A stretch of DNA of 30,079 nucleotides, taken from positions 1-30,079 of the IMG/VR virus record IMGVR_UViG_3300005645_000004; one strand, 5' to 3'. The position numbers were made by a program, and so were the translations under genes. Positions within the stretch are counted from its first letter, which is position 1. Every line of letters begins with the position of its first letter. Shown piece after piece: positions 10,640 through 28,890 of this stretch. The notes beneath the pieces are model-generated. The model searched no databases. It saw nothing but the letters and a program-made list of their open reading frames with translations, and had not been told where the DNA came from. The stretch is from a virus (lineage: Duplodnaviria; Caudoviricetes).

Positions 10640-11995
10640 TTATTCTCCTTCTAATCCTGGGATTCCCCCCGTTTCTTCTGCTGGTTTTTTTCCTTTTGCT
10701 TTTAGAAAAGCATTAGCTGCGGTAGTGCTCATTCCTCCATATTCCTTGCTTACCAAATATGGGAGAAGGTCCTCATAGGTAGCGTCAGGATTAGCGCTCA
10801 CAAATTCTTCAGCCCACTCAATACTCGTTTTTTCCTCTCCCGTGGTTGTAATAAGTTTTTCGTAGCCCTCAGGAACTTTAGTGTAAATATCTTTCCAAAT
10901 ATCAATTCCCGGAAATTCTGCCTTCAAAATATTACCCATCTTTTCTCTTGCCCCTTCCTTTCCATATAATCCTGCGTATAAATTCTTTAATTCTTCGTTA
11001 AATCTATTTTTGTATTCTTCTTTTGTCTTTTCTTCTTTCCAAGCAGGCACCATACCGCTTATTACCGCCCCAGTTAATCTTTCTAATTCGCCTTCGTAGG
11101 CTTCTTTTTCTCCTCTTAAAATATCGGATATTCTTTTTTGAACTCTCTCATATCTGCCGGTAGCCAAATCCAAAAGCCCTTGTAATCTTTGAGCTTCTTC
11201 TTTGGTATCCTCTTGTTTCATTCCCGCCCTAACCGTAACTTCACCCAAGTCTCTGTTGTATTGTTCGGCCAAACTATTTCTCTCATCAATTAAATTACCA
11301 ATGGTTCTTTCGGCATCTTCTAAAACCATCCTTCTCCTGCCGGTGATCATCCATTGAGGAATTGGCTTTCCTTCCTCGGTAAGCAGGGCTTGATCTCTAG
11401 TGCTTTTAGCTTTGGCAATGTCTGTGTCTAGGGTATCGATTTTAGTTTTAGTTCCCCCCAAGCCCGCCGATTCATACTCTTTATTAAAAAGAGCTACTGT
11501 ATCTGGCTTTGCAGATAAAAAGGTTTTTATCTTTTCGCTGGCATCTTCTATCTCTGCCTCGATTTCAGGCATTTTGTATTCTTTCTCTTTTTCTTTTTTT
11601 AGCCTCTCTTCTCTTTCGGCCCAAGTCTCAGGAGGCGTATAACCAGCAACTGCTCCCGCCCCTAATAGTTCAGGAACATATTTTTCTGCCCCGGCCTCAA
11701 CAATTTCTTTAGGAGTAACAGGTTTTACCGGGGGCTTCTCTTCTTCAAAAACTCCTTTGACTGCCCTCACCTCTGTTTCCGGCGTTGTCCCAGCTTCTGG
11801 TACAGTTAAAGCAATTCCAGCCGGCAGTTTCTCGGCAACTCCACTATAGCCCCAGCTAGCCCAAGGGCTGGTTGGGATTTGCTTCTTCAACCACTTCAAA
11901 TAATCCCTGTACATTTCTTGGGCTTTGGGCAGACCAAACTGCTGTTTGGTGATTCCGAACAATGTTTCGCCTGGTTTGACTGTATAGGTTGCCAT
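10640..11995 (-). CDS. LysM-domain, coiled-coil virion protein (probable ejection/pilot protein)
   Basis: N-terminus MATYTVKPGETLFGITKQQFG...LPAGIALTVP fits a LysM with an insertion; the rest is charged and helical; lies directly before the giant protein. Confidence 0.65.
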   Translation of the reverse strand: MATYTVKPGETLFGITKQQFGLPKAQEMYRDYLKWLKKQIPTSPWASWGYSGVAEKLPAGIALTVPEAGTTPETEVRAVKGVFEEEKPPVKPVTPKEIVEAGAEKYVPELLGAGAVAGYTPPETWAEREERLKKEKEKEYKMPEIEAEIEDASEKIKTFLSAKPDTVALFNKEYESAGLGGTKTKIDTLDTDIAKAKSTRDQALLTEEGKPIPQWMITGRRRMVLEDAERTIGNLIDERNSLAEQYNRDLGEVTVRAGMKQEDTKEEAQRLQGLLDLATGRYERVQKRISDILRGEKEAYEGELERLTGAVISGMVPAWKEEKTKEEYKNRFNEELKNLYAGLYGKEGAREKMGNILKAEFPGIDIWKDIYTKVPEGYEKLITTTGEEKTSIEWAEEFVSANPDATYEDLLPYLVSKEYGGMSTTAANAFLKAKGKKPAEETGGIPGLEGE

Positions 11996-12011: not shown

Positions 12012-12033
12012 GCCAGCCGACCTTAAAGCTGGC
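12012..12033 (-). promoter_or_regulatory. Conserved-loop hairpin, copy 1 (loop UUUAAGGUCG)
   Basis: GCCAGC-TTTAAGGTCG-GCTGGC, 16 nt upstream of ATG 11995. Confidence 0.7.
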
Positions 12034-12037
12034 TTCT

Positions 12038-12217
12038 TTATTTTTCAGCCTGTTTCAAATCGTAAAATTCTATATCCGTCCCGTATTTCGTAATTATCGG
12101 CTTCATTCCAATTTTGTGCTTCTGGCTGATTAAATTCAGGTCATCAATGTAAGCCTTCACTCTTTGCTGAAAGTCTTTTTCTTTTTGTTTAATTAATTTT
12201 TTCTGAAAGAAATTCAT
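12038..12217 (-). CDS. Hypothetical protein (59 aa), below the ORF-track cutoff
   Basis: MNFFQKKLIKQKEKDFQQRVKAYIDDLNLISQKHKIGMKPIITKYGTDIEFYDLKQAEK* fills the gap between the spike and LysM genes on the operon strand. Confidence 0.75.
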   Translation of the reverse strand: MNFFQKKLIKQKEKDFQQRVKAYIDDLNLISQKHKIGMKPIITKYGTDIEFYDLKQAEK

Positions 12218-12236
12218 ATTTTTAATTTATTAAAAT

Positions 12237-13859
12237 TTATTTTGGCTTGACCTTTTGCTCTAATTTTTCTACTTTCTCTATTAACTCTCTTATCGCCTGG
12301 ACAGCTATCCCCAAAGTTCTGGTCATTTCAATTTCTTCTTTTTCTCCCCTCGGGCTCATAAATTTCATTTCTTTTGGAAAATCATCCTCTTTAAAGTAAT
12401 GTCTTTCCCCATACTCGCCCTCAAAGATTTTTGGGGCTTTTATCTTTTTAAAGACGTCGATGGCCGAATTAGAGGTGGGCAAAGGACAAGCTGATTCGTT
12501 TGTTCTGTAAACATAATTCCATTTATGGGTTGAATCACCCAGCCAGTAATAATTATTGGTTGTCGGAATTAGATCGCCCTGAACCGTTAGACTGGGCGAA
12601 GTTGACAGATACAAGGCCCCCGCAATATAGAGGTTCGTCCATCTTTTTGTCGCCAAACCCAGAGGATGAGAGTTGTCGGCGTATGGAGCTATGCCCAACC
12701 TGGATTCGTTAACAGAAGCTCCGACTTGAAACCGAATGGTGCCTCCTGTCCCCAAGGCTGTGTAACCTCCGCTCCCGGCGTCTATAAAAATATTTTTAGA
12801 AGTTAACTGGTTTTTTATTAAAAGATCGCTGGGACCGGCGTAAATATTGGCCACATTTTCATTGCTGGAATTATAAAAAGCCATCAGGGTTGAATAAAGA
12901 ATTATCCTCTGCCCGGAAGACGCAGTCTCAATCTGCACACCCCTTATTGTCCCGGCGGTCACAAGCCCAATATTGGCTGAAATAGCTGATAATTGAGAAA
13001 CTGATATTTTATCCGCCGTTACCGCACCGGCGTATATCTTTTCGGAAGTAACCGCTCCTGCATCAATCTTTATAGCTGTAACTGCTCCTGCGGCTATTTT
13101 CCCCGCCACAATCGCTCCCGCTTGAATCTTGGGCGAGCTTACGGCGTCACTGGCTATTTTGGTTTCAGTAATGGCGCCTGTCGCTATCACTGCGCCTTGA
13201 ATAGCATCTACGGCTATTTTAGTGTTTGTTACAGCCTGGTTGGCTAATTTTAATTCCGTAACTATCCCGTTAAGTATCGCTGTCGCCTGGCCCGAAGCGT
13301 TTATCGCTGAAGAAAGCGTGGACGCCAACCTGTTATCGACTAACGCGTTGGGGCCTAACTTTAGGGTGGCGGCTGATTTGTCCCAAATCACATATTTGCC
13401 GGAAGCGTAGTTCCCTATAATCACATCGCCGACACTTGCTCCACCGACGTAAGCCTTGAACACATCGTCGCTGGCATCATCAATGATTTGAATGCCGGTG
13501 TTGGCATCCGGGAATATTCTTACCCTCGCCCCGGAAGCCGCACTGTCATATTGACCGCCGAGTTCATCCACTTTTTCTACCGGATTATATCCCGAAGAAA
13601 ACTCAACCGAACCGTCTATTTTTATCAAAGAACTTGTAATTCTTAATCCTTCCTCAGAAGCATTGATAGTCGCTACAATATCATTTTTCCCGCTGGCCGA
13701 TTCCAAAGGAACGAAATTTAATTGGCTCAGAGTTAAACTTCTTTTAACTATTCGTTTCCCATCGATAAGGCCATAAAGAAATTGAGAAACAGGACTATTC
13801 GGATCGGGCTCCGGCAAATCTACATTCGATATATAATTTGGGTGAATCTCTTTTGGCAT
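12237..13859 (-). CDS. Tail fibre/spike protein with 10-aa (AVTxxKIxxG) repeats and a C-terminal chaperone-like coiled coil
   Basis: About nine AVT/AIT-x-x-KI repeats, LSAISANIGLVTAGTIRG, two LGxxTxxW motifs, C-terminal AVQAIRELIEKVEKLE resembling peptidase S74 chaperone ends. Confidence 0.72.
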   Translation of the reverse strand: MPKEIHPNYISNVDLPEPDPNSPVSQFLYGLIDGKRIVKRSLTLSQLNFVPLESASGKNDIVATINASEEGLRITSSLIKIDGSVEFSSGYNPVEKVDELGGQYDSAASGARVRIFPDANTGIQIIDDASDDVFKAYVGGASVGDVIIGNYASGKYVIWDKSAATLKLGPNALVDNRLASTLSSAINASGQATAILNGIVTELKLANQAVTNTKIAVDAIQGAVIATGAITETKIASDAVSSPKIQAGAIVAGKIAAGAVTAIKIDAGAVTSEKIYAGAVTADKISVSQLSAISANIGLVTAGTIRGVQIETASSGQRIILYSTLMAFYNSSNENVANIYAGPSDLLIKNQLTSKNIFIDAGSGGYTALGTGGTIRFQVGASVNESRLGIAPYADNSHPLGLATKRWTNLYIAGALYLSTSPSLTVQGDLIPTTNNYYWLGDSTHKWNYVYRTNESACPLPTSNSAIDVFKKIKAPKIFEGEYGERHYFKEDDFPKEMKFMSPRGEKEEIEMTRTLGIAVQAIRELIEKVEKLEQKVKPK

Positions 13860-13860
13860 A

Positions 13861-15210
13861 CTAAGGAATAATATCTACTCCCTCGATGGCAGTTAGGACC
13901 TTTCTAACCACCGGAGTAAAATTTCCCGACGTGTTTAATTCCAGTCTTATTTCCAAACTTTCAAATCTCTCATTGAAAGGAAAACTCATTTGCTTGGAAT
14001 TCTCTACATCTGCTTTTAAATCATTGCCTGCCTCGTCTTTAATTGATTGCCAGGTATCTTGGCCATCTATTTTTGCTTTCGGCTGAATTGAACAGCCGGC
14101 AGGCATTTTCTCAAAGAATAGCTGGAGATTAAAGCCCTGAAAATAATTATTGCCATCAAAAACTAAACTTTCATAAATTCCTTGCGCCAATTTATTGTCG
14201 GGGTCAATCGTATCTATTCCGTAAGAGCTTCCGTCTTTCCAAGAAACGTATAAATTGTCTCCGCCTAAAATTGCTCCAATTTCGATATTTTCTGTGTGGC
14301 CAGTTGAAATAATGAAAGGACTATTCAGAACTTGGGGGTAGTTTTTATTCTTCCTTCCCCAGTCAAAAATTCCTTTTGTTGTCCCGAATATCATCCTCTT
14401 TTCATAAACATCAATCGCCCCAGGCCGAACCTGTGATGGAAGATCTTTTACCGGAACTGCGGAAACCCCATTAAACCAATAAAGATTTTCGCCGGCAAAC
14501 AAATAAGTTATTCCGCCGGTTTTAAAGAAGGCGTTTATGTCTTTTTCCTCCCAACCCTCGATCGGCTCATAAGAAGCAGATTCCAAATCCCAGGTAAACA
14601 ATTCAGCTCTTTCATTGTTTACTGCTCCAATTTGAAGCAGGGGTTTCAAAAGAGTTAAACATTGAACTTGCCAGCCATAGAAAAGGTCTAAAGCATCTTC
14701 GACAAATACTCCTTCATCATTTACTGTGGCTACATATCTGCCATTTCCCACGCACAACAAATCGCTTTTAGGAACTATCAATATAGGGTGATAATCGCAG
14801 GAATTAAGCGTTTTCCAGTTTGGACTAGCATCAGTATTCCAATCAACAGAAGTTTCTATACACCGGCCCAGCTTTCCGGCCGTAGTCCAGTAAAGATAAC
14901 CGTAAAAATAAGCGGCGTCTTTTATTTCTCCATTAGGATCGGTATAAATTTTAGACCAGGTTCCGGACTCTTTTTTATAAACATTGCCGGCGTCTCCAAA
15001 CCCGTAAATCTTGCTTCCTACTTTTATCATTTTGATTACCAAATCTGTAACCACGCTTCCTGTATCCTTTTTGAGGGCCTGGTTAACTTCTAGGGCTCTG
15101 GGATTTTTGTGAATATTCAAACCGACTCCATAAGCAAATGAGTTTTCTATTCCTGCTTCTTTGCTGTCGGCTAAACCCCCATTAAATTGTCTAATAGGCC
15201 AAATGGGCAT
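13861..15210 (-). CDS. Tail nozzle / tail-hub beta-propeller protein (functional analogue of P22 gp10 / T7 gp12)
   Basis: 449 aa, beta-rich, N-terminal IRQFNGGL motif, directly after the adaptor gene. Confidence 0.6.
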   Translation of the reverse strand: MPIWPIRQFNGGLADSKEAGIENSFAYGVGLNIHKNPRALEVNQALKKDTGSVVTDLVIKMIKVGSKIYGFGDAGNVYKKESGTWSKIYTDPNGEIKDAAYFYGYLYWTTAGKLGRCIETSVDWNTDASPNWKTLNSCDYHPILIVPKSDLLCVGNGRYVATVNDEGVFVEDALDLFYGWQVQCLTLLKPLLQIGAVNNERAELFTWDLESASYEPIEGWEEKDINAFFKTGGITYLFAGENLYWFNGVSAVPVKDLPSQVRPGAIDVYEKRMIFGTTKGIFDWGRKNKNYPQVLNSPFIISTGHTENIEIGAILGGDNLYVSWKDGSSYGIDTIDPDNKLAQGIYESLVFDGNNYFQGFNLQLFFEKMPAGCSIQPKAKIDGQDTWQSIKDEAGNDLKADVENSKQMSFPFNERFESLEIRLELNTSGNFTPVVRKVLTAIEGVDIIP

Positions 15211-15214
15211 AGTT

Positions 15215-15847
15215 TTAACGATAAAGCGGATAAAAATCAGTTATATCTTTGGCTTTGCTCGGCCCCCTTTTATTGCTTTTAACCATCTGCCAGCACTCTC
15301 TAATAATTAAATCGGCTTCCATTAGGGCATCGTTTCCTAAGTTGTATTTTCTTTCTTTTTTCAAAGCAATGCTTAAGGCGGTTAAAATGATGGCTTCGTG
15401 CAAATCTTCTTCCAATTCTGAAATGTCCCCATCGTTGATAAGTTTGGCTGGTCTTTTTTGATACCAGAGATGAATTTCTTTACCGTTCTCTGTCGGAGTG
15501 GGCTTCAAGAAAAATTGAGTTCCCCTGATGGTAAAAACTTTTGATAAATCAAATTCTCCGCTTTCAAAATCAACAAAAGGAACGTAATTATAAGTCTTGC
15601 CGGCAACTTTAATTAAAAGCATACTGCCGTATAAATAATCGGCTGGAAGGGCATAATTCGGCTGTCCGGCCACCGTTCCGTTTTTAACCGTGGCCGATTC
15701 AGCTATGGTCGGCCAGAATTTCTTTTTGGCCACCCTTATTTGAGCAAGATTAAGCCAGCGTTTCTTGGAGGTGTCTGACCAAAAGCCACTCACTCCTGAA
15801 GAAGAAAGCCTGCTATTCAACTCTTGTAACATTTCTTGAAAAGTCAT
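15215..15847 (-). CDS. Head-tail adaptor protein (functional analogue of P22 gp4 / T7 gp11)
   Basis: 210 aa; MTFQEMLQEL...WLNLAQIRVA helices, TVAGQPNYALPAD, FLKPTP, WYQKRP and LHEAII motifs typical of podovirus adaptors. Confidence 0.75.
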   Translation of the reverse strand: MTFQEMLQELNSRLSSSGVSGFWSDTSKKRWLNLAQIRVAKKKFWPTIAESATVKNGTVAGQPNYALPADYLYGSMLLIKVAGKTYNYVPFVDFESGEFDLSKVFTIRGTQFFLKPTPTENGKEIHLWYQKRPAKLINDGDISELEEDLHEAIILTALSIALKKERKYNLGNDALMEADLIIRECWQMVKSNKRGPSKAKDITDFYPLYR

Positions 15848-15862
15848 ATTTTTAAAAATTTA

Positions 15863-18800
15863 TTATGGATAATCTTTTAAATATTCTGTTTCTGTTTTTT
15901 GGTCTTTTTCGTATTCGGTCTCTGCTCTTTGGTCTTTAACGTAATACCATTCGGGACTAAATTGAACTAATCCAGCTAAAGTTGAAACCACTATTTTTTC
16001 TACATTGGCCAGTCCGGCTAAAGTTTCCCATTTTGTTTGCTCTGGTATTACCAATCCTGCCAATGCCTTTTTCTTGGTCTCTTCTGGAATTACCAATCCT
16101 CCTAAATTTCTAACTTCTATCTTCTCTACGATTGCTAACCCTGCTAAAGTTTTATTGTGAGTTTCTTCTGGGATAGCCAGGCTGGCAAGCGTTTTAACTG
16201 CAATTTTCTCTGGATTTGCCAACCCTGATAAAGTTCTAACCTCAATTTTCTCTGGATTGGCTATTCCTGATATACCTGCCTTATGGGTTTCCTCTGGAAT
16301 TACTAATCCAGCTGACCCTTTCACCGCAATCTTTTCAGGATTAACCAATTCAGCTAAAGTTCTTACAACTATCTTTTCTGGGCTAATCAATCCGCTTAGA
16401 GTTTCCCGTTTAGTTTGTTCGGGGGTTGCTAATCCGGCTACGGCTCTAACTTCAATTTTCTCTGGACTAACCAAACCTGCTAAAGTATTTTTATGGATTT
16501 CCTCTGGTATAACCAATCCAGCTAATGTTCCAACAGTTTCAGGGCTGACTAATCCAGCCAGGGTTTTAACAGTTTCAGGGCTAACCAGACCGGCTGCAGT
16601 TTTTACTTCTATTTTTTCTACGCTTGCTAATCCGGATAAAGTTTTTGCCACTATCTTTTCTGGATTTAGAATTCCGGGCAATGTCTTAACCTCAATCTTT
16701 TCCGGATTAACCAAACCGGCCAGGGTAAATTTCTTTGTTTCTTCCGGAGTAATTAGGCCCGCTGAAGTATCAACAAACTCTGGAATAGATAATCCTGCTG
16801 AAGCCTTAACTTCTATTTTTTCAAGTTCTGCTATTCCAGATAAGGTTTTAACTTCAATCTTTTCTGGGTTAGCTATTCCTGCCAAGTTCTTTATCTCTAT
16901 CTTTTCGGGATTTACCTGCCCGGCCAAAGTTTTTACTACTATTTTTTCCGGGCTTGCCAATTCAGCTAATGTTTTTTTCTTGGTCTCCTCTGGGACAATT
17001 AATCCCGAAAGAGTTTTTGCTTCTATTTTTTCCGGCTTTACCAATCCAGCTAAGCTCTTAACTTCAACCTTTTCTGGATTTAACAAACCAGCTGTGGTCT
17101 TTTTGCTAGACCATTCTGCTTTACTAAATCCGGCCAATGTCTCTTTGTGGGTTTCTTCTGGTGTAATCTGCCCTGCTAAACCTTTGACTTCTATCTTTTC
17201 AGGGCTTATCAATCCTGCTAAACTTTTTACAACTATCTTTTCTGGATTAACCAAGCCCGCTATCGTTCCTATCGTCTCTGGCTCAACTAAACCTGCTGTA
17301 GTCTTTTTATCCGACAATTCCGGCTTACTAAATCCAGCTAAAGTTTTGACTTCTATCTTTTCTGTTTGAACCACCCCAGCTAAAGTCTTTTTATAGGTTT
17401 CTTCCGGAATAATTAGGCCCGCTAGAGTGTCAACAAATTCTGGTATTGTTAATCCTGCTAAAGTCCTAAGCTCGATTTTTTCTGGATGTGCTATGCCTGA
17501 TATGGTTTCCTTATGAGTTTCTTCTGGAATCACTATCCCTGCCAAAGATTTCACTTCTATCTTTTCCGGATTTATTAGACCGGCTAAATTTTGAACTGCT
17601 ATTTTTTCGAGGTTGGATAAACCCGCTAAAGATTTTAGTTCTATCTTTTCTGGGGTGGCAATCCCAGCAAGTGTCTTTACTGTTTCAAGCGTAGTTAATC
17701 CAGCTAAAGTTTTCCTTTTCGTAACTTCCGGGGCAACTATTCCTCCCAAAGTTCTTATACCGGGAACTTCTGGTTCAATAAGCCCGGCGATTGTTCTTAC
17801 GACTATTTTTTCAGGACTTGCATCTCCTGCTATTGTTCCTACCGTTTCCGGCTCGACTAAGCCGGCTAAGGTATTTTTCTTCGTTTCCTCAGGGACTGCT
17901 ATTCCAGCCAAAGTAGATACAGAAGGAGCTTCGGGTATGACTAATCCCGCCGAGGTCTTTACTGCTATCTTGTCTGCACTTATCAACCCAGCCAATGTTC
18001 TTCTTTTAAGGAACTCAATTATAGACAGCCCGGCTAAAGTTTTTAATTCAATTTTTTCGGGAAAAACTAATCCCGCTAATGTTTCCACCGTCTCCGGACT
18101 AATCAATCCGGCCAAAGTATTTTCTTTAATTTCTTCGGGAACAACCAAACCGGCTAATGCTCCTTTCTTAGTCTCTTCAGGAATAACTAATCCAGCTAAG
18201 GTTTCTTTCTCAGTCTCTTCGGGGATAACTATTTCCGCCAGCCCGCCAACTGTTATCTTTTCAGGATTTACTAAACCAGCTAAAGTTCCTACTGCTTCAG
18301 GATTAACTAATCCTGCCAATCCTTTAACTGTTATTTTCTCAGGACTAACTATTTCAGCTAAACTCTTGACCGATATTTTTTCTGCACTTACCAACCCGGC
18401 AGATGTTCCTTTTTTGGTTTCTTCGGGAATTATTAAGCCCGCTGAACTTCTAATTTCTATCTTTTCTGGACTTGCCGATCCCGCTGAAGTTTGTTTCTTG
18501 GTTTCTTCCGGAGTTACTAAACCCGATAAAGTATTTTTCTTTGTTTCTTCCGGGCTAACTAGTCCAGCCAAAGAACTCACTTCTATTTTCTCAAGGTTAG
18601 AAATTCCAGCTAAGGTTTCCACCATTTCAGGACTTATCAGTCCCGCTAAACTCTCAATCTTTGTCTCTTCTGGCATTAGTAATCCTGATAAAGTTTCCTT
18701 TTTAGTAATCTCTGGTATCACTAATCCCGCCAGCACATTTCTTTTCGTAACTTCTGGGTTAGCTTTTCCGCCTATAGTTTTCACTTCCAATTTTTCAGGA

Positions 18801-21800
18801 CTTATTAAGCCAGCTAAACTTTTTACAACTATCTTTTCTGGGTTTATTAAACCTGCCGAAGTTTCTACTTTAATCTTCTCGGGATTTCCTAAGCCTGCTA
18901 TTACGCTCTCATTATTTTCTTCTGGGACGACCAAACCCGCTAATGTATCAACAAATTCCGGCGCAGTTAATCCTGCCAAATTTTTAACCTGAATTTTCTC
19001 TGGACTTGCTAATCCAGCCAAACTTTTGACTTCAATCTTTTCTGGATTTATCAATTCGGCAATGGTCTTAACTGCTATCTTTTCGGGACTTATTATCCCC
19101 GCTAAGCTCTTAATTTCAACTTTTTCTGGATTGGCTATCCCAGCTGTGGTTTTTTTCTTAGTCTCTTCGGGAGTTATCAAACCAGCCAAAGTTCTTATTT
19201 CTATCTTTTCTGGATTAGCTATTCCTGCCAGATTTTTAACTACAATCTTTTCGGGGCTAAGTAATCCTGCCAATCCCTTAACTACAATTTTTTCAGGTGC
19301 AGTTATTCCAGCCAAAGTTTCCATTTTGGTTTCTTCTGGAGTAACTAAACCTGAAATAGTCTCTTTTTTTGTCTCCTCGGGAGTAGATAAGCCTGCTAAA
19401 CTTTTCACTTCGATTTTCTCTGGATCGCTTTTGCCTGCGATGGTCTTTGCCAGCTCCCACGATAGAGTACTGCCTCCGTAGTATTTTGCTGCGTTGTCTC
19501 CAGCTTTATCCGTCCAGACAAATGCAATGCCAGTCTTGGGTTTTGAAACATTGAATCTTGCTGGATGGTAAGCCCAGAGAAGAAATGGATAAACTTGATC
19601 ATCAGAGCCAGAAGTCTTTATGGCAAGTTCTGACCACGAATCAATGTATTCCCTTAATTTAATCTGCCTGTAGCTTTCTCCAGCACATTTTCCCTCCCAG
19701 ATTACATAGATATGATCATTTTCATCTATGGAGATTGAGGGATATCTTTGAACGCAATTTTCTGTGCTTAAATCTTGAACTTCACCCCAAGAAGTTGTCC
19801 GCTTGCAGTATTTAATAAAGTCCAGAGAGGCAGTCTGGGAATGCCATATTAAATGAACGTTATTATTGCTGTCTATGGCAATGCTGGGATTGGCCTGATA
19901 CTGATTTGTTATCTGTGCAGAAACTTCTTCGATGTTCTGCCAAGAGTCCGTGTATTTTCTGTATCTGATGTGAGTCCAGCTGGATTCTTCATCGGTCGTA
20001 CCTGCCCACGCTAAATGAAGATAATTGTTTCCGTCTGTTGCTAGGGCAAATGTGTATTGGTCGTGTGATCCGTCAGTCAAATTTTCAATATCCTGCCAGC
20101 TGTCTGTATATTTTCTGTATCTGATCCGATAATGAGGATTCTGTTCCCGCCAGACCACGTGAATGTAATCGTTGCCGTCTATAGCTATGGCAACCTCCCA
20201 CTGGTCATAATTTTCGTCAGCAGTCAGGTTTTCTATTGCCTGCCAAGAATCTGTGAATTTTCTGTATCTGACCTGATAATGGCCGAAAGAATCAGCGTGC
20301 GTCCCATACCAGACAACGTGAATATAATCATTGCTGTCTACGGCAATCGCAGGGTATTTATTGTGATAATCCCCAGAAGTCAGAATGGTCTGTGTCCAGC
20401 TGTCTCCGTCGTCTTCTGATTTTTCGTAATAGATTTGATAATAATTGCTGGCGTCTTTTTTGGAATAAACAACGTGGAGATTTCCGTCCGAAGTGCGGAC
20501 TATTTTTCTGTTTCCACGATAGGTAGCATCATCGGGAACTACGCTTTCGATGGTTACTTCTTTACTGCATTTTGGATTAACTAATCCTGCTATTCCAGCC
20601 ACTGGGAAATCGGGTTCTGCCAAGCCAGCTATTATAGCCACAAATGAGAGGGAAACTGTTCCAGCTATTGTTGCCACTGGGAAATCGGGAGACGCTAACC
20701 CAGCTATCGATAATTCAACCATTGCATCGTAATACGTTCTGAATGCCATATCGTAGGCAGTAGCATCGTAATTCCACGCACCTCCCCAGTAGTATTCCAA
20801 TATCCCGTCAGAATAATTCTCGTCAGCGTAATAAACGCTGAGATTATTACTGCTGCTGGAAGGAAGATCGCTGTCTATTATAATATGGTAGGTTGTATTT
20901 GCCTGTAATTCGGGCGGTGAAGAAAATTCAAAGGCTTCCCAATGCTCTGAATCAGAAATATCATTAAAATCTTTTTTTATACTCTCAGCTATTAGATCGC
21001 CTATTTGTCCGCTGTTATCTGCCCTAATCTCTGCCCAAACTTGATAGCCCGAATAAGAACCGTTCCGTTTGACATACCATTCGACTTTAGGGCATTCGGC
21101 AGTGACAGAAGGCTTAAAGCTCTGGCCGAATTTCCCGTAATCATACGTCATCGTAAAAGAGTAACCTGTATTTGTCTGCTCCTGATCTACGCCTTCAGCA
21201 CCATAGGGAGGCGGAGCAGTAAATTCTGGAATAATCTTGCTGGCTATTGTCTCTTTCGCTGGAACTGACGGAATTGCCAATCCAGCTATGCTGGCCACAA
21301 AATGTTCTGGGGAAGATGTGCCTCCTAAGGTTTTTACTTTTTCTGGGGAAGTCAGGCCAGCTATGGCCGCAACGGGGAAATCTGGGTCAGACAGGCCAGC
21401 AAAAGTCTCAGCATCGATCTTTTCGGGGGTAGCCAGTCCTGCTATTGCTTCTGTTCCCATTGCTCCTGGAGCAATAGCAATTTGAACTCCTACTATTCCA
21501 TCAGCAACACTTGCTCCAATAGTAACATCAAGAGTTGAGCCTGCTGTTCCCATTGATTTCTTACCCCAAACTCCTGAGGCATCGCTAGTTGAAGTTCCTG
21601 ATTGTCCATCATCTTCTTTACTCCAACCTGAATCTGATACTGTAAAAGGATATCCGTCACCGCCGTCAAAAGCACCAAAACAGAGAGCCAAACAATCATT
21701 CACGGTAGTTGTTACAGCAGGAGCAACTATTGTAGCAGAATTATTTATGGCAGGAGTTCCAACCACATTTATTGGATTCCCTGCATCAACTCCTGAAATC

Positions 21801-22105
21801 CTGACATACCAAGCAACCCACTCATCTGAACCTGCCTGCGTCACCTGTTCACTTGACGGTTCTGTTCCGTCTGCTATCTTCCAAAACAATCCAATATGAG
21901 AATCTGAAGTGCCATCTCCAAAATCGCCTATAAAGTTCCAACCTGTTTTATTGTCTGTAAAGGCAGTGCTTGAAGTATCATCGTTAATGCAAATAAGTAA
22001 AAGCAAATCTCCCGCCTGCACTCCAGAGGGTTTTTGAAGTGTTATAGTCGTAGTTGGATTGGTTTCGCTCTGTTCTGTATAATTTTCTATTACTGGAACT
22101 GCCAT
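15863..22105 (-). CDS. Giant fibre/adhesin: two beta-sandwich domains, a beta-propeller and about 85 tandem repeats
   Basis: 2080 aa. N-terminal beta domain (KPSGVQAGDLLLL), second beta domain (GQSFKP...LQANTTYHIII...DMAFRTY), about six ~48-aa blades (PAIAVDSNDYIHVVW...IRYRKYTDSWQ), then xTLAGLxxPEKIEV-type repeats. Confidence 0.8.
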   Translation of the reverse strand: MAVPVIENYTEQSETNPTTTITLQKPSGVQAGDLLLLICINDDTSSTAFTDNKTGWNFIGDFGDGTSDSHIGLFWKIADGTEPSSEQVTQAGSDEWVAWYVRISGVDAGNPINVVGTPAINNSATIVAPAVTTTVNDCLALCFGAFDGGDGYPFTVSDSGWSKEDDGQSGTSTSDASGVWGKKSMGTAGSTLDVTIGASVADGIVGVQIAIAPGAMGTEAIAGLATPEKIDAETFAGLSDPDFPVAAIAGLTSPEKVKTLGGTSSPEHFVASIAGLAIPSVPAKETIASKIIPEFTAPPPYGAEGVDQEQTNTGYSFTMTYDYGKFGQSFKPSVTAECPKVEWYVKRNGSYSGYQVWAEIRADNSGQIGDLIAESIKKDFNDISDSEHWEAFEFSSPPELQANTTYHIIIDSDLPSSSSNNLSVYYADENYSDGILEYYWGGAWNYDATAYDMAFRTYYDAMVELSIAGLASPDFPVATIAGTVSLSFVAIIAGLAEPDFPVAGIAGLVNPKCSKEVTIESVVPDDATYRGNRKIVRTSDGNLHVVYSKKDASNYYQIYYEKSEDDGDSWTQTILTSGDYHNKYPAIAVDSNDYIHVVWYGTHADSFGHYQVRYRKFTDSWQAIENLTADENYDQWEVAIAIDGNDYIHVVWREQNPHYRIRYRKYTDSWQDIENLTDGSHDQYTFALATDGNNYLHLAWAGTTDEESSWTHIRYRKYTDSWQNIEEVSAQITNQYQANPSIAIDSNNNVHLIWHSQTASLDFIKYCKRTTSWGEVQDLSTENCVQRYPSISIDENDHIYVIWEGKCAGESYRQIKLREYIDSWSELAIKTSGSDDQVYPFLLWAYHPARFNVSKPKTGIAFVWTDKAGDNAAKYYGGSTLSWELAKTIAGKSDPEKIEVKSLAGLSTPEETKKETISGLVTPEETKMETLAGITAPEKIVVKGLAGLLSPEKIVVKNLAGIANPEKIEIRTLAGLITPEETKKKTTAGIANPEKVEIKSLAGIISPEKIAVKTIAELINPEKIEVKSLAGLASPEKIQVKNLAGLTAPEFVDTLAGLVVPEENNESVIAGLGNPEKIKVETSAGLINPEKIVVKSLAGLISPEKLEVKTIGGKANPEVTKRNVLAGLVIPEITKKETLSGLLMPEETKIESLAGLISPEMVETLAGISNLEKIEVSSLAGLVSPEETKKNTLSGLVTPEETKKQTSAGSASPEKIEIRSSAGLIIPEETKKGTSAGLVSAEKISVKSLAEIVSPEKITVKGLAGLVNPEAVGTLAGLVNPEKITVGGLAEIVIPEETEKETLAGLVIPEETKKGALAGLVVPEEIKENTLAGLISPETVETLAGLVFPEKIELKTLAGLSIIEFLKRRTLAGLISADKIAVKTSAGLVIPEAPSVSTLAGIAVPEETKKNTLAGLVEPETVGTIAGDASPEKIVVRTIAGLIEPEVPGIRTLGGIVAPEVTKRKTLAGLTTLETVKTLAGIATPEKIELKSLAGLSNLEKIAVQNLAGLINPEKIEVKSLAGIVIPEETHKETISGIAHPEKIELRTLAGLTIPEFVDTLAGLIIPEETYKKTLAGVVQTEKIEVKTLAGFSKPELSDKKTTAGLVEPETIGTIAGLVNPEKIVVKSLAGLISPEKIEVKGLAGQITPEETHKETLAGFSKAEWSSKKTTAGLLNPEKVEVKSLAGLVKPEKIEAKTLSGLIVPEETKKKTLAELASPEKIVVKTLAGQVNPEKIEIKNLAGIANPEKIEVKTLSGIAELEKIEVKASAGLSIPEFVDTSAGLITPEETKKFTLAGLVNPEKIEVKTLPGILNPEKIVAKTLSGLASVEKIEVKTAAGLVSPETVKTLAGLVSPETVGTLAGLVIPEEIHKNTLAGLVSPEKIEVRAVAGLATPEQTKRETLSGLISPEKIVVRTLAELVNPEKIAVKGSAGLVIPEETHKAGISGIANPEKIEVRTLSGLANPEKIAVKTLASLAIPEETHNKTLAGLAIVEKIEVRNLGGLVIPEETKKKALAGLVIPEQTKWETLAGLANVEKIVVSTLAGLVQFSPEWYYVKDQRAETEYEKDQKTETEYLKDYP
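15965..19447 (-). repeat. Coding tandem repeat array, about 85 units of 42 nt (14 aa) and 36 nt (12 aa)
   Basis: Counted by eye from the translation: about 85 units, about 11 of them 12 aa; consensus (K/E/R)TLAGL(V/I)xPE(KIEV/ETKK/TV); diverged at the DNA level. Confidence 0.92.
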
Positions 22106-22126
22106 AGTCCTTATTCACTTCTCAAA

Positions 22127-22190
22127 GAGCATTTTCTTAGAGCACCCTTCGAGAAGTGCCTAAATAATGCTCGTTACCTGTTCGAGCAGG
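22127..22190 (-). promoter_or_regulatory. Two tandem stem-loops sharing a CUCGAA loop in front of the giant fibre gene
   Basis: CCUG-CUCGAA-CAGG (22190-22177) and GAGCAUU..UUAG-GCACUU-CUCGAA-GGGUGC-U-CUAA..AAUGCUC (22172-22127), followed by UUUG, then an AAGGA site before ATG 22105. Confidence 0.5.
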
Positions 22191-22211
22191 CCGAGAAATT
22201 ATTTTTAATTC

Positions 22212-22568
22212 TTATTTAACTCCTTTTCTAATCGCTGTCTTAATTATTTGCAATGAATCTAAGGGAAATCTTTGAACCCAAACGTTGCATTTGCCGTCAA
22301 TTCTAATCTGAATGCACTCTTTTTTCTTATAATCAATTCCGCCGATTACTTTGGCTACTAATCCCCCTTGTCCTCCTGCGGTAGCTATTGCTTCGTTAAA
22401 AAAGTAATAGGCGTCGTATTTTCCCAAACTAACAGTAGGGGCATATTGAGCCTCTCCAATTCTTACCGGCAGAGTTAATTCAAGATTGGTTAAACCTTCG
22501 GGAACGTCGTCCCAAAACTTTTCTTTTTCGGTTATAGATTTCCCATCCTTAAAGTGAGATATAAACAT
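22212..22568 (-). CDS. Hypothetical protein (118 aa)
   Basis: ATG start, operon strand, beta-rich; no family recognised. Confidence 0.75.
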   Translation of the reverse strand: MFISHFKDGKSITEKEKFWDDVPEGLTNLELTLPVRIGEAQYAPTVSLGKYDAYYFFNEAIATAGGQGGLVAKVIGGIDYKKKECIQIRIDGKCNVWVQRFPLDSLQIIKTAIRKGVK

Positions 22569-22644
22569 AAGTTTTTAAGAAGAGCAATTCTCTGCGTCTT
22601 GCTTTTTATCACAAGGAACGATAATACAAGCCAGATAAGAAAAT

Positions 22645-22929
22645 TTACTCCTCTTGGTTAATTAGAGATTCCGCTTCGGCAAACTTTGACTGATTGACCA
22701 ATTCGGCAACTTTTCCTGCTTTTTCCACTGGAAGAGAAACTTCTTCCCAGCCCTCTTTATCACTGAAAATTCTGACAAATTTCTTTCCTCCTAAAACCTG
22801 CTCATTTCTCTTAGCCGCGCACTCATCGCAGACAAAAGTTGAATTGTCGTCCTGCTCGCCAACCGGAACGTCTCTCTCTACTTCCTTACCGCAGGAAGTG
22901 CATTTGATAGTGTATTTTTCTTCGGGCAT
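22645..22929 (-). CDS. Small zinc-ribbon protein (94 aa)
   Basis: Start reassigned to ATG 22929 (MPEEKYTIKCTSCGK...FVCDECAA); two CxxC pairs. Confidence 0.72.
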   Translation of the reverse strand: MPEEKYTIKCTSCGKEVERDVPVGEQDDNSTFVCDECAAKRNEQVLGGKKFVRIFSDKEGWEEVSLPVEKAGKVAELVNQSKFAEAESLINQEE

Positions 22930-22956
22930 ACGAATAGAAAAACAAAAAGGCAACTA

Positions 22957-23586
22957 CTAGGTAGTTACCCAGCCTTCTTCGGTGTCTTGGGTGCCTGATT
23001 CGGGAACTGTAGCGTAATAATTACCGGCTCCAGCTCCTGATTTGCAGTGCCTAATTCCGTGAGTTCCGGGAGTCATCGCTGTCCAGGTCGGAGTACCCTC
23101 TGAGCCTTCGTTGAACTCCCAAGTCAGAGTAGGAGCAGATCCAGTGTAAGAATATCTAATCTGAAGAATATGCTCGAAAGTATCGGAAGTCGTTACATCA
23201 TAAGGCATTTCCAGGACCATATTAAAAGTAATATGGCCGCTGGCACCGGGGGTGTTTACAGCAGTTACATAATTCGTTGTTCCTTTCAATCGGTTCGGAT
23301 TAGCGCTTCCAGCAGTAGCAGAAGCAGGTTTCCAGTTGGCACCGGGAGAAGTTGCACCGTCATTGGTGTCAACCAGACAAAGCATAGGCTTATTGCTGTT
23401 CCCAGCAGTCCCGGCAAAAATAGTCTTGGCGGTTGTTGAACCGGAAGCATCTTTAGCCGGAAAAGTTTGGGAATTATCCCAAGCTTCATACTTGGGGGCA
23501 GCACTCAAAGCCTGTGAAAACGTAATTCTGAATACGTTAGCAGTATCTACATTTCCGTATCCAGTCGCTTTGTTTGGTATTGCCAT
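22957..23586 (-). CDS. Beta-rich virion structural protein (fibre subunit or capsid decoration candidate)
   Basis: 209 aa rich in Thr/Gly/Ala/Ser, between the MCP and the giant fibre gene, preceded by a conserved-loop hairpin. Confidence 0.55.
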   Translation of the reverse strand: MAIPNKATGYGNVDTANVFRITFSQALSAAPKYEAWDNSQTFPAKDASGSTTAKTIFAGTAGNSNKPMLCLVDTNDGATSPGANWKPASATAGSANPNRLKGTTNYVTAVNTPGASGHITFNMVLEMPYDVTTSDTFEHILQIRYSYTGSAPTLTWEFNEGSEGTPTWTAMTPGTHGIRHCKSGAGAGNYYATVPESGTQDTEEGWVTT

Positions 23587-23604
23587 CTTTTTGCTTTAGA
23601 TTTT

Positions 23605-23628
23605 ACCGCCCCGACCTTAATGGGCGGT
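23605..23628 (-). promoter_or_regulatory. Conserved-loop hairpin, copy 2 (loop AUUAAGGUCG)
   Basis: ACCGCCC-ATTAAGGTCG-GGGCGGT, 18 nt upstream of ATG 23586. Confidence 0.72.
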
Positions 23629-23635
23629 TTGTTAA

Positions 23636-23902
23636 TTATTTTTCTTCTTTCGGTTTTTCAGTTTCTTTTTCTTCTTTCTCTACTTCTTCCTCTTTCGCTC
23701 CTTGTTCAAAAACTTTATTTGCGGGAACTTCAGCATACTTTCTGAGGAACTCAATTTCTTTTTTATCTTCGGTATTATACTCGCCTCTATCAAACTGAAT
23801 GTGCTTGCCGGGTAGAATACGAACCCTCCCTCTAATCAATTCTGTATCATCAGATTCCATCGTAATTCCTAATTTTTTATATGGTGTGATAAATTTAGCC
23901 AT
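23636..23902 (-). CDS. Small capsid-adjacent protein (88 aa) with a Glu/Lys-rich tail
   Basis: Start reassigned from TTG 24037 to ATG 23902 (MAKFITPYKKLG...); the upstream extension overlaps structured RNA and does not look protein-like. Confidence 0.72.
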   Translation of the reverse strand: MAKFITPYKKLGITMESDDTELIRGRVRILPGKHIQFDRGEYNTEDKKEIEFLRKYAEVPANKVFEQGAKEEEVEKEEKETEKPKEEK

Positions 23903-23934
23903 AGATTTAATTCGTAGATTACTTTTACTTGATA

Positions 23935-23963
23935 GGCTTAAGCCGACCTTTATTGCATAAGCC
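23935..23963 (-). promoter_or_regulatory. Conserved-loop hairpin, copy 3 (loop AAUAAAGGUCG)
   Basis: GGCTTA-T-GC-AATAAAGGTCG-GC-T-TAAGCC, 32 nt upstream of ATG 23902. Confidence 0.62.
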
Positions 23964-23966
23964 ATT

Positions 23967-24032
23967 TGTTCTGAATGACACTCTGGACTTGGCTTCAACA
24001 GAGTGCCTATCGAAGCCAAGCTATCCAGAACA
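23967..24032 (-). ncRNA. Candidate structured cis-RNA (pseudoknot or bistable switch) downstream of the capsid gene
   Basis: Three pairings within 66 nt: UGUUCUGGAU/AUUCAGAACA (10 bp), CUUGGCUUCGA/UUGAAGCCAAG (11 bp), GGCACUCUG/CAGAGUGUC (9 bp); each contains a G-U pair valid only on the minus strand. Confidence 0.55.
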
Positions 24033-24073
24033 TACAAGGAAAATGTTAAATTGACTTGTTTAGAGGATCAATA

Positions 24074-25264
24074 CTACTCTCCTCCAGTAACTCCTTTAAG
24101 GATTGCGGAACGTTCTTCCTGCTTCACTTCCAAACCAACTTCAGAAATATACTGGTCTTTTTGTTCATCAGCATCATTATCTTGGATATTAGTCTTTAAC
24201 ATAGTATCTCTATGCTGAAGGAATCGATAAGTTAAAGTTTCCAAATCAAGGCCAACGGCATAGCCACCATACACTGCACCTTCTAAGAGAGAATGTTTAA
24301 TCAAATTAATCTCTCCGTGAGCAGATAAATAGCGGTTAATACTAATACCATAGGTCTTATCGGTAGGAACCACTTGCAACTTACCTCTTGCCCAAAGATT
24401 GATAGCTGAAAGAACTTTAGCACTGCAGAAAAGATACTTACTGGCTGAACCGTGAGTGAACAATAGTTCTAAGAAAGTTTCAAATTCGGCTTCGGTCAAT
24501 GTAGAACCTGATTCATCCTGAACATTGGTGGTAATCCTTTCTATAATTCCACCAGTAAATCTTTGAGGATGAGCTCCAGTCGTAATTATTGCCCTTTTGC
24601 CGAATAAGAAAGCCCTCTCAATAGCAACCATATGTTCAATTCCTTTTTTCTTCCTTTGGGTAGCCAAGTCCTCGCCAGTATAAATATCAGTATTTTTTAG
24701 AGTTTCAGTGGCACCAATTGTAGTCTTAAGTATCTGGCAGTAGTTGAATTTCTCAGCTGCTAAAGTAGAATTGACGTCCCTTGCTTTTGACCCTTCCAAC
24801 GAGGCAGAGCCAACAATAACAAGGGGGTCATCATCTACCAAAGCGGCTGTGCCAGTGCCGTCAATTCCCCTAACAACCGTAAGAGTTTCGGTGTCGGTAG
24901 CCACATTGGTTACTAACATTCTCTCAGCGGTCCGGGGAACCAAAACGACATCGTGCTTAGTGAAATAAGCAGAATTATCAACTACAATATCGGTAATACC
25001 TGCCTCATAACCAGCCACGCAATTGATAGCATCCCAAACTTCGCCATACTTATCTTCCCACCAGGTAAATTTAGGATTGATCGCAGCTTTCTTTTTTATT
25101 GGTCCGCCAATCTTATTTCCCAAATAGTCCTTACCAGAATTGGTAAGTAAAGCTAACAAAGGATAACGATTAACATCCAATAAAGCTAATTGAGAAGCTA
25201 CATCAACCCTTAACATTCCAGCAGGAATGTTTCCGCTTCCTCTAATTCCAACAATTTGTCCCAT
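24074..25264 (-). CDS. Major capsid protein (SU10 MCP / DUF5309-like, HK97 fold)
   Basis: 396 aa after the scaffold; PKFTWWED, GSASLEGS, FNYCQILKTTIGATET, EHMVAIERAFLFG, RFTGGI and YISEVGLEV motifs, with an inserted beta domain (TLTVVRGIDGT). Confidence 0.85.
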   Translation of the reverse strand: MGQIVGIRGSGNIPAGMLRVDVASQLALLDVNRYPLLALLTNSGKDYLGNKIGGPIKKKAAINPKFTWWEDKYGEVWDAINCVAGYEAGITDIVVDNSAYFTKHDVVLVPRTAERMLVTNVATDTETLTVVRGIDGTGTAALVDDDPLVIVGSASLEGSKARDVNSTLAAEKFNYCQILKTTIGATETLKNTDIYTGEDLATQRKKKGIEHMVAIERAFLFGKRAIITTGAHPQRFTGGIIERITTNVQDESGSTLTEAEFETFLELLFTHGSASKYLFCSAKVLSAINLWARGKLQVVPTDKTYGISINRYLSAHGEINLIKHSLLEGAVYGGYAVGLDLETLTYRFLQHRDTMLKTNIQDNDADEQKDQYISEVGLEVKQEERSAILKGVTGGE

Positions 25265-25327
25265 TTTAATTTTCTTCTATTTGTCCTGATTGACCAGTCA
25301 GGATATTACTATTTTCGAAATTTTAGA

Positions 25328-26047
25328 TTAGAGACCTCGAAGTTCAGAGGTTGATTGAGAAGTTTCAAGGCTTCTTTTAATCTTCTCGGCTTCGGTCTCT
25401 GTCGGGGTGGTCGAAGCAGACCCTTTTGCTCCTTCCACAAAAGGCTCTTTCTCTTTTCCTGCCTTCACTTTTTCCATAAAACCATTGACTCTCTCGCAGG
25501 CCTCTTCAATTGGAACGCCTGCGCCGTCCATCACGTCAGCCACCATTCGTTTATAAGACTTGGAGGTTTTAAGAAGTGGGTATTTTCCTGAGGCAGAATC
25601 AATAAGCCCTTTGGCTCTTTTTTTATCTTCTGCCCTTTCTTTTTCCCGCTTCTCTACTTGTTCCAAGGCTTTGGCGGTGGCCCTCTTCTCGACTTCCGTA
25701 AGAATTTCCTGAGGAGTTTTTTGAGAATAATCCTCTTCGGGCTTTTCCGGCCCGGAGTATTCTTCCTCCTCCTCTTCTTTTTCTATGGATTCTATTTTCT
25801 CTCTTAACTCTTCCATTTCTTGTTTGAACCTTCTTGCTTCGTCTGAAGAGCCGCTATATTTCTTATTCACCTCTTCTAATTGTTTTTTCGTCTCATCTAA
25901 GTCTTTCTTCAGGCTCTCCAAATTCTCTTTTTCCCCTGAAGCACCCGAGGGAAGAGTGGTTTGACCAGTGCCTTCTGGTTGGGATCCTTCCCCCACTTTT
26001 CCTTGGGGATTTAATTCCTCTTCGGGAGTGTTGTTAGGATTTTCCAT
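25328..26047 (-). CDS. Capsid scaffolding protein
   Basis: 239 aa, acidic, disordered N-terminus plus coiled coil (KKYSGSSDEARR), directly upstream of the MCP. Confidence 0.72.
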   Translation of the reverse strand: MENPNNTPEEELNPQGKVGEGSQPEGTGQTTLPSGASGEKENLESLKKDLDETKKQLEEVNKKYSGSSDEARRFKQEMEELREKIESIEKEEEEEEYSGPEKPEEDYSQKTPQEILTEVEKRATAKALEQVEKREKERAEDKKRAKGLIDSASGKYPLLKTSKSYKRMVADVMDGAGVPIEEACERVNGFMEKVKAGKEKEPFVEGAKGSASTTPTETEAEKIKRSLETSQSTSELRGL

Positions 26048-26060
26048 AAAATTTTATTCC

Positions 26061-26097
26061 TTTTAGGGATTTACCAATGCGGTAAATTTGCCTAAAA
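26061..26097 (-). promoter_or_regulatory. Stem-loop abutting the scaffold ribosome-binding site
   Basis: UUUUAGG..AUUUACC-GCAUU-GGUAAAU..CCUAAAA running directly into GGAAUAAAAUUUUAUG (ATG 26047). Confidence 0.45.
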
Positions 26098-26137
26098 AGA
26101 TAGTTTTTTAATCTATTTAATTGACCTTAAACCCTTA

Positions 26138-26347
26138 TTATTTTCTTAATTGCTTAATAACAGCCTTCTGTCTTCTGCCTTTTTTAGTTGTTCCCATCAT
26201 ACTGGCCTTGCAGACTGCGACAGCCGCTGATTTCTTATCTTGGTCAGGATTTCTCGGCTTAAAATTAGGATTAGCCATTAAATCAGCCACGCATTTTTCC
26301 ATTTTCTTTGTTATGGCCGGAGTTTCCCCCGGAATGTTATAAGGCAT
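26138..26347 (-). CDS. Small basic phage protein (69 aa) with a CV...AVAVC motif
   Basis: MPYNIPG...KMEKCVADLM...KSAAVAVCKAS with a basic C-terminus; operon strand. Confidence 0.65.
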   Translation of the reverse strand: MPYNIPGETPAITKKMEKCVADLMANPNFKPRNPDQDKKSAAVAVCKASMMGTTKKGRRQKAVIKQLRK

Positions 26348-26361
26348 ACTAATATAAATTT

Positions 26362-26664
26362 TTAAGCGCTGACCTCTACGCCAAGCCCGCGTCTGGTACT
26401 TTTGATTTCACCTTTTTGAATCTTTCCTAAAACCTCTATTAAATCGCCGACCGCTTTTTCAAAATTTATTGTCTTTTCTTGTTTATCTAAATCGAGGCTT
26501 CCCATATACGCGCTTCTGGCGGCCGAAACCGCGTCTTCCACCGCGTCCCATTTTTTATATTTATCTTCTCTCTCCTGTCTTTTTTTAAATTTAGCCAGAA
26601 CGACGTTCTCGCCTCTTAATTGGGAAGAAATAACTTCGTTGACTTGTTGTGTTTTCGCTGGCAT
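26362..26664 (-). CDS. Hypothetical helical protein (100 aa)
   Basis: ATG start preceded by a conserved-loop hairpin; operon strand. Confidence 0.7.
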   Translation of the reverse strand: MPAKTQQVNEVISSQLRGENVVLAKFKKRQEREDKYKKWDAVEDAVSAARSAYMGSLDLDKQEKTINFEKAVGDLIEVLGKIQKGEIKSTRRGLGVEVSA

Positions 26665-26678
26665 AGAAATAATTTTTT

Positions 26679-26700
26679 GCTCTGCGACCTTAATCAGAGC
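26679..26700 (-). promoter_or_regulatory. Conserved-loop hairpin, copy 4 (loop AUUAAGGUCG)
   Basis: GCTCTG-ATTAAGGTCG-CAGAGC, 14 nt upstream of ATG 26664. Confidence 0.72.
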
Positions 26701-28870: not shown

Positions 28871-28890
28871 GTTGACTCACGTTGACTCAC
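28871..28890. repeat. Perfect tandem 10-bp direct repeat (GTTGACTCAC)x2 in the terL-portal spacer
   Basis: Read directly from the sequence; fills 20 of the 27 nt between terL stop and portal ATG. Confidence 0.85.

Follow-up and report, generated by a model that had tools for sequence, protein, structure and literature searches.

The window studied here, a stretch of 30,079 nt from IMG/VR record IMGVR_UViG_3300005645_000004, corresponds to the virion module of a phage resembling podoviruses; its minus strand encodes all of the terminase, the portal, a capsid protein of SU10 type, an adaptor, a tail fibre and a protein of 2996 aa. We infer from the capsid tree, from leaders poor in Shine-Dalgarno (SD) sequences and from a phage khpA gene that its host belongs to the Patescibacteria. 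Several genes of the window are preceded by a short word, AAAGGUCGA, and our analysis shows that this word is genuine and recurs widely in the leaders of Patescibacteria phages and of the host gene khpA. The word itself is the conserved part, and a surrounding stem is optional. On balance, we lean towards the word being a substitute for the SD sequence that would pair with the loop of helix 26 (h26) of 16S rRNA, a reading drawn from sequence complementarity and its distribution.

A sequence-only reading of this stretch had described four intergenic hairpins with unrelated stems before late genes, and all four are present as described, with minus as the coding strand. The hairpins starting at 12012, 23605, 23935 and 26679 end 16, 18, 32 and 14 nt before an ATG, respectively, and the motif within them lies 22, 25, 41 and 20 nt from it. 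The earlier remark that a normal SD is lacking at the ATGs 14–32 nt downstream also holds for all four leaders (predicted duplexes of –0.8 to –2.2 kcal/mol for the three that were scored, the fourth judged by eye). WTWAAGGTCG has four matches in the window versus 0.31 expected, a number reached in none of 100 shuffles; AAGGTCG occurs five times on the minus strand, the fifth copy within the gene for the 2996-aa protein, and never on the plus strand. A comparable stem is found at only 1.6% of random positions. The conserved word does sit in the loops, but the loop size of 10–11 nt does not apply throughout, since in the 12012 hairpin a U-G pair closes the loop and leaves it at 8 nt. Similarly, the four members are real but not the whole set: weaker ones had been missed, notably before the major capsid and tail-fibre genes (Table 1). 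As the earlier reading had found no family to assign, neither did a comparison with Rfam, which at gathering score gave no match in the window and only tRNAs in 18 related loci. A terminator scan cannot see loops above 8 nt and is uninformative on the four hairpins.

Relatives were collected through the capsid protein from IMG/VR (80 of 213 confirmed), metagenomes (2) and GTDB (78 loci from the best 80 of 96). The enrichment in position and strand anticipated by the sequence-only reading is seen there: around the consensus AAAGGUCGA, 101 of 111 sites end 20–44 nt before an ATG and 151 sites are sense versus 20 antisense, although consensus, position and strand counts come from loci picked by motif count and are circular to that extent, for which reason groups chosen from a tree later replaced them in the clade comparison. 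A closing stem is present at 26 of 99 sites versus 2.3 in shuffles. Where it exists, the description of a free stem with a fixed loop is borne out by covariation (7 of 7 pairs in 11 related orthologous leaders, with none of 500 shuffles as high), but it fails for the 73 of 99 sites that have no closing stem. No SD was found in the 99 motif leaders, compared with 22 of 365 other leaders, and the spacer between word and ATG is rich in A (54%) and poor in G (7%). Among 120 sites, 45 lie within 15 nt after a stop codon and 25 inside the upstream open reading frame (ORF). In the capsid leader, all 30 loci read have GUC(A/G), by eye mostly at the 3′ side of the loop; the other 3 of 33 loci had no capsid call.

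The word is not confined to this phage type. A pattern scan of viral contigs, of which 80 of 121 loci were read, returned mostly chance matches (65 without a leader site), together with one unrelated phage in which 10 of 24 leaders have the word and a further phage type having it ahead of virion genes. The claim of late-gene specificity has to be dropped, since the word also precedes host khpA and small non-virion genes of the unrelated phage. In the leader of a probable small terminase gene (L081:4640-4664), the motif lies in a stem opposite its own complement and would thereby be masked, and a similar stem is seen at L042:11291. As a general feature, a nearby CGACC able to occlude the motif was found at 6 of 120 sites only, three of them being the motif's own palindrome.

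An indication of function is the exchange of the word for SD between phage clades. In the capsid tree (FastTree), a 58-row clade rich in Patescibacteria prophages has the window at its base, and the named hosts of a nested 23-row subclade are mostly Microgenomates. Leader groups chosen from this tree, with near-identical rows thinned, comprised 23 and 16 loci (L022, whose capsid was mis-extracted for the tree, was added by hand). AAGGUCG stands in 91 of 453 leaders of the first group, spread over 22 of its 23 loci, and SD in 29; in the group with Microgenomates hosts, none of 327 leaders has AAGGUCG and 94 have SD. The capsid gene carries the motif in 19 of 23 loci of the first group versus SD in 16 of 16 of the second, and for the slot of the 88-aa gene after the capsid gene the numbers are 20 of 23 relatives versus 15 of 16 Microgenomates phages. 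Orthologues of the 451-aa gene have SD in 11 of 11 Microgenomates phages, the scaffold-like gene has the full motif in 14 of 23 relatives, and portal and nozzle genes have neither signal. Across 15 gene families, which are not independent, the frequency of the motif rises with that of SD (rho 0.57, p 0.027). Use of the two signals at largely the same genes across clades argues for a positive element and, together with the fixed window before starts, supports the option of an SD-independent translation enhancer among those first offered.

Comparison with host rRNA, which had been suggested as a check, gave the best lead. The core GGUCGA is the exact complement of UCGACC in the h26 loop (the helix label was assigned here from 16S position and flanks), and it is the most enriched hexamer in the leaders of the tree-chosen phage loci, present in 104 of 477 versus 9.1 expected. 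In the 16S rRNA of genome G002, complements of GGUCGA are confined to the h26 loop and a paired strand of helix 42 (h42). Substituted forms of the hexamer are enriched for positions 1, 5 and 6 only. The h26 stem varies freely and its loop keeps UCGACC, varying in two unpaired 5′ bases. In both RNAs the hexamer stands at the 3′ side of a loop behind unpaired bases. Such a placement is the geometry of kissing loops.

The distribution of the loop among hosts follows that of the word. Class names of genomes lacking a taxonomic label were assigned by inference. In the class of G031, all 15 loci that could be read have a loop ending in UCGACC; phylum-wide it was found in 33 of 52 hits (121 genomes searched; one hit was not 16S), and in the Microgenomates class, that of G001, in none of 10 (12 hits in 61 genomes, two non-16S hits dropped). 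The loop is present in 6 of 6 hosts with motif-bearing prophages and absent from 6 of 6 with motif-free prophages, these 12 being the hosts, out of 31, that had the needed 16S segment. In a table compiled by hand, khpA leaders have GGUCG in 15 of 24 genomes with the loop versus 1 of 12 without it, and the single exception keeps GGUCGA and can pair via wobbles. The 16S tails in the class of G031 (L479-L508) keep the anti-SD core CCUCC in only 10 of 30 cases and have lost it in 20, several being without even GAUCA. This agrees with PMC9297842, where the anti-SD is found in 48% of Parcubacteria and h26 is described as conserved, with a role called unknown. According to PMC5620043, bacterial h26 is exposed and pairs with h26 of another ribosome in dimers. 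Variant h26 loops are scattered through the Patescibacteria (G104, G080, G047, G072, G112, G089, G012, G011 and G083), and some Microgenomates have a very long h26. It should also be noted that seven loci (L087, L091, L094, L102, L103, L108 and L128) are labelled Gammaproteobacteria or Bdellovibrionales and that their prophages and, where read, their 16S look Patescibacteria-like.

Among host genes, khpA keeps the word most consistently. GGUCG is present in 13 of 30 khpA leaders phylum-wide (the best 30 of 45 matches) and in 20 of 30 in the class of G031 (30 of 33), versus 4 of 231 and 4 of 92, respectively, before genes neighbouring khpA. In other bacteria and Microgenomates it is found in 2 of 22 khpA leaders, one of them a phage-type copy. 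A general host enhancer of highly expressed genes was considered and rejected, given the counts for HU (1 of 30), rpsS (2 of 29), DUF378 (2 of 15) and khpB (0 of 4). In the part of G002 covered (about 760 of 886 kb), AGGUCGA precedes 3 of 710 host genes versus 7 of 58 genes in the prophage region. By eye, 13 of 25 matches to AAAGGTCG in G031 lie 20–72 nt before a gene, the genes concerned being khpA, HU, SSB, pilins, a ferritin-like protein and mobile genes, and several sites directly follow promoter-like boxes. A strict pattern gives 0–4 matches per genome in the 121 genomes, no more than a reversed control. The G002 chromosome, a single contig, has khpA but no match for R3H (KhpB), and its 16S and 23S genes are unlinked. 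A small GIY-YIG nuclease element is present three times in G031 (L299, L329 and L338), each copy with a promoter-like box, then the motif, then the start.

Under the reading that we favour, the core of the word would pair with the h26 loop and hold the small subunit upstream of the start codon, replacing SD. The predicted helix has 5–6 bp and would become a loop-loop contact when the stem is present; pairing would raise initiation both at fresh starts and after a stop codon. More loosely, and by analogy with bS21 and the anti-SD in Flavobacteria, the conservation of the word at host khpA might reflect control of this route, or help with it, by KhpA, and tuning might be the reason why some phages have khpA of their own. 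The word is also used by unrelated phages that have no khpA, which points to host machinery as its reader. A wider picture is also conceivable: Patescibacteria that are losing the anti-SD might hold a second mRNA-rRNA handshake at the h26 tip, convergent with the viral termination upstream ribosome-binding sites (TURBS) and internal ribosome entry sites (IRES), with an autoregulating KhpA as gatekeeper on the 30S subunit and two ribosome populations, and phages might exploit the route for their virion genes, capture khpA as a means of tuning and revert to SD in hosts without the loop. We regard this picture as tentative and clearly more doubtful than the pairing itself.

Several observations weigh against h26 pairing. 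The rarity of the word before host genes such as those of G002, HU and rpsS is odd for a general ribosome-binding site and calls for an extra idea, for example masking by KhpA, which itself rests on the bS21 analogy. Of 10 genomes with variant loops none has a strictly compensatory word and nine are simply without the word. The host-loop contrasts are phylogenetically few and not independent, most of them coming down to Microgenomates versus all others. In a Clostridiaceae genome with an identical loop, the word is missing from both the khpA leader and the prophage; the loop alone is therefore not enough, and something else, for instance ribosome dimers, may account for its conservation. Pairing does not explain the near-invariant AA ahead of the core, the variant with a C-to-U change that would keep a wobble pair is not enriched (6 versus 5.1), and in the window the sixth base of the word is G or C instead of A. 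Finally, three motif slots have hardly any SD in the sister clade: those of the 97-aa gene (1 of 16), the 104-aa gene (2 of 20) and the scaffold gene (2 of 16).

The main rival is that the word is an operator for KhpA, alone or with KhpB: khpA would regulate itself, and phages, some with their own khpA, would join or hijack the regulon. We find this possible and distinctly less probable than pairing with h26, the same holding for KhpA as a linked regulator or partner of the h26 route. The excess of GGUCG in khpA leaders over neighbouring genes speaks for an operator. So does the phage of the window itself, since a second contig of it (L081), identical over 16003 bases, encodes KhpA (L081:1051-1329, PF13083) with the word 32 nt upstream; the leaders of six other phage khpA genes are alike, giving seven in all. 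A KhpB was also reported to bind single strands of 7–9 nt, near the size of the loop (PMC12968392). However, phage khpA does not track the motif. It is present in 6 of 15 motif-bearing viral records and in none of five further motif records from the viral pattern scan, motif-rich phages are without it (G128, 90% complete; G129, 87%; G267 and G269), and 22 Microgenomates-type loci have khpA behind a strong SD and no motif. An operator also leaves the exact h26 complement and the fit to host loops unexplained, and the sites, which lie upstream of the ribosome footprint and replace SD, are unlike those of repressors. No such motif is mentioned in the parts seen of bioRxiv 10.64898/2026.10.12.757534, PMC11261784 and PMC12968392, one of which calls the proteins non-specific, and the covered parts of PMC6728339 report neither the word, a KhpA motif nor mRNA-h26 pairing. 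More broadly, we found no report of the word, of a similar KhpA motif or of bacterial mRNA-h26 pairing in the literature covered, which was mostly open-access and exclusive of supplements, where motif lists could hold the word.

In L081:1051-4385, upstream of the terminase genes, phage khpA is accompanied by a gene for a 77-aa acidic protein, also behind the motif, a DNA methyltransferase gene and a sigma region-4-like gene. In L086:12909 and 21 similar Microgenomates-type loci, khpA lies inside the virion module, about 2.8 kb past the capsid start. Most phage KhpA proteins form their own clade. Cultured phages gave four weak khpA-like matches in small unannotated records, and viral scans for relatives gave one with the capsid protein of the window and none with phage KhpA. 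A single-sequence model of phage KhpA (pLDDT 49) was not used.

Other explanations fare worse. A site at which late messages are cut or shielded segment by segment, so that RNA processing or stability sets protein ratios, would suit the 45 of 120 sites close behind a stop codon and the excess of stems over chance, but by eye host sites lie a few bases past promoter-like boxes, where a cut makes little sense, and the SD swap and the fixed distance to ATG point to initiation; we consider it unlikely. RNA reads (one run, two 151-nt contigs) gave no ends and were uninformative. Slightly less probable still is that the word pairs with the anti-SD tail or with h42, or that it imitates, for a ribosomal protein or an enzyme acting on tRNA, either the h26 loop or the variable loop of tRNAs. 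With the tail, the predicted duplex is weak (–4.4 kcal/mol versus –12.4 for a full SD) and none of 30 tails is complementary; a variant anti-SD was likewise rejected, the tails being canonical or degraded. The match to h42 is longer (7 bp, –10.5 kcal/mol), but this strand is paired in its own helix, varies within the class and is present in a motif-free lineage. As for mimicry, AAGGUCG does occur in tRNA variable regions and UCGA is common to word and h26 loop, but mimicry of that loop predicts a conserved CC after UCGA and the fixed part is GG before it. No conserved complement was common to the four 23S rRNAs scanned. Least probable of all are boxB-like antitermination sites or terminators of antisense transcription: T-rich runs do follow the hairpins when read on the plus strand, but most sites have no stem, they repeat through one operon tied to start codons and not to a promoter, the strand bias is for sense, and a terminator has no need of a fixed loop. 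The antitermination and processing options of the earlier reading have gained no support.

Table 1. Members of the leader element and genes of the virion module in the window
Feature	Position	Strand	Basis
Hairpin with motif (12018-12027) ahead of 451-aa gene	12012..12033	-	
Hairpin with motif (23612-23621) ahead of 209-aa gene; same hairpin in relative L082	23605..23628	-	
Hairpin with motif (23944-23953) ahead of 88-aa gene; orthologous stems covary	23935..23963	-	
Hairpin with motif (26685-26694) ahead of 100-aa gene	26679..26700	-	
Additional member: hairpin with GGUCA in loop, 26 nt before major capsid gene	25284..25303	-	
Additional weaker member: 9-bp hairpin, loop AAAGGUC, within end of upstream gene, before tail-fibre gene	13888..13912	-	
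GGUCGG variant at portal gene end, 40 nt before 99-aa gene; candidate member only	27046..27054	-	
GGUCA variant 22 nt before 69-aa gene; weak candidate	26370..26376	-	
AAGGUCA variant 74 nt before scaffold-like gene	26122..26128	-	
AAGGUCA variant 30 nt before 59-aa ORF (12038-12217)	12248..12254	-	
451-aa gene immediately ahead of giant protein gene; no Pfam match	10640..11995	-	
Tail fibre / virion structural protein	12237..13859	-	phrog_892
209-aa gene, virion module	22957..23586	-	
88-aa gene after capsid gene	23636..23902	-	
Major capsid protein, SU10 type	24074..25264	-	PF17236
Probable scaffold	25328..26047	-	inferred: coiled, acidic, directly ahead of capsid gene
100-aa gene	26362..26664	-	
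Portal protein; no motif, likewise 0/22 relatives	27011..28867	-	
Terminase large subunit, runs past window end	28895..30079	-	

Elsewhere in the window, the 2996-aa protein (1635-10625, minus strand) has a RadC-like JAB domain and a sliding-clamp-like domain and probably belongs to the polyvalent proteins that are injected. Ahead of a gene with a Fib_succ_major domain (1-861) lies a long run of GA dinucleotides (about 1070-1105); the two may be host DNA or a phase-variable cargo gene. A 10-base direct repeat with GAGUCA stands just ahead of the portal start (28871-28890, minus strand), and a long hairpin without the motif (22106-22211, minus strand; 13-nt loop) ends about 10 nt before a 2080-aa gene.

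To our knowledge, selection of starts by rRNA pairing in bacteria is known only via the anti-SD, and the word described here is likely a second, undescribed way for bacterial ribosomes to grip the message. If true, it would answer what role the conserved h26 has in Parcubacteria without anti-SD, a question left open in PMC9297842, and it would be the bacterial counterpart of the h26 handshake of eukaryotic viruses. It would also provide an orthogonal ribosome-binding site, which can be tested in E. coli by a single rRNA loop swap (UAUCGACC on h26). If KhpA is the reader instead, the word would be the first defined sequence target and an autoregulatory site for a widespread RNA-binding protein. 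Either way, it marks the host lineage of a phage and, likely, highly translated genes in uncultured bacteria.

A fixed loop word on free stems is familiar from CsrA/RsmA sites and lambdoid boxB; the word described here has neither a GGA-type loop nor a GNRA-like pentaloop and does not lie over the start. A boxB (nut) site further involves an obligate hairpin close to a promoter, together with boxA and an N-like protein. Like SD, it is short, purine-rich and placed before starts, at genes that carry SD in sister phages, but it stands 20–45 nt upstream instead of 5–12, matches the 16S tail poorly and is used in lineages often without anti-SD. The autoregulation of rpsU (bS21) in Flavobacterium, as presented in PMC9976891, is similar in that a single host gene has retained a signal pairing with rRNA, absent from most others, and phages encode the product of this gene themselves, as PMC9723584 describes for bS21; here the protein is KhpA, no known ribosomal protein, the site is h26, and binding of KhpA to the ribosome is hypothetical. 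In HCV-like IRES (hepatitis C virus), the IIId loop pairs with the h26/expansion segment 7 (ES7) loop and recruits the small subunit at a fresh start (PMC5727462), which resembles the mechanism proposed here; the present element differs in having no large IRES fold, a helix of 5–6 bp instead of a GGG triplet, many genomic copies and a bacterial setting. TURBS motif 1 of caliciviruses and influenza B, which according to PMC5972666 pairs with the 18S h26 loop near the mRNA exit, has a stem of species-specific sequence and is rescued by rRNA changes, differs in its eukaryotic host, its word, its pairing, which here is predicted, and its stem, which here is optional. TURBS also act at a stop-restart junction and depend on translation of the upstream ORF, whereas the present sites mostly lie past the upstream stop, also follow promoters, hence are not tied to termination, and in hosts are found in 5′ leaders; since most sites come after the stop, the element is not a TURBS, though alike on paper. 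What the two share is a short fixed word that is complementary to the apical loop of h26 and stands at a set distance before the start, in messages of viral capsid regions; a stem of free sequence displays it at about a quarter of sites here.

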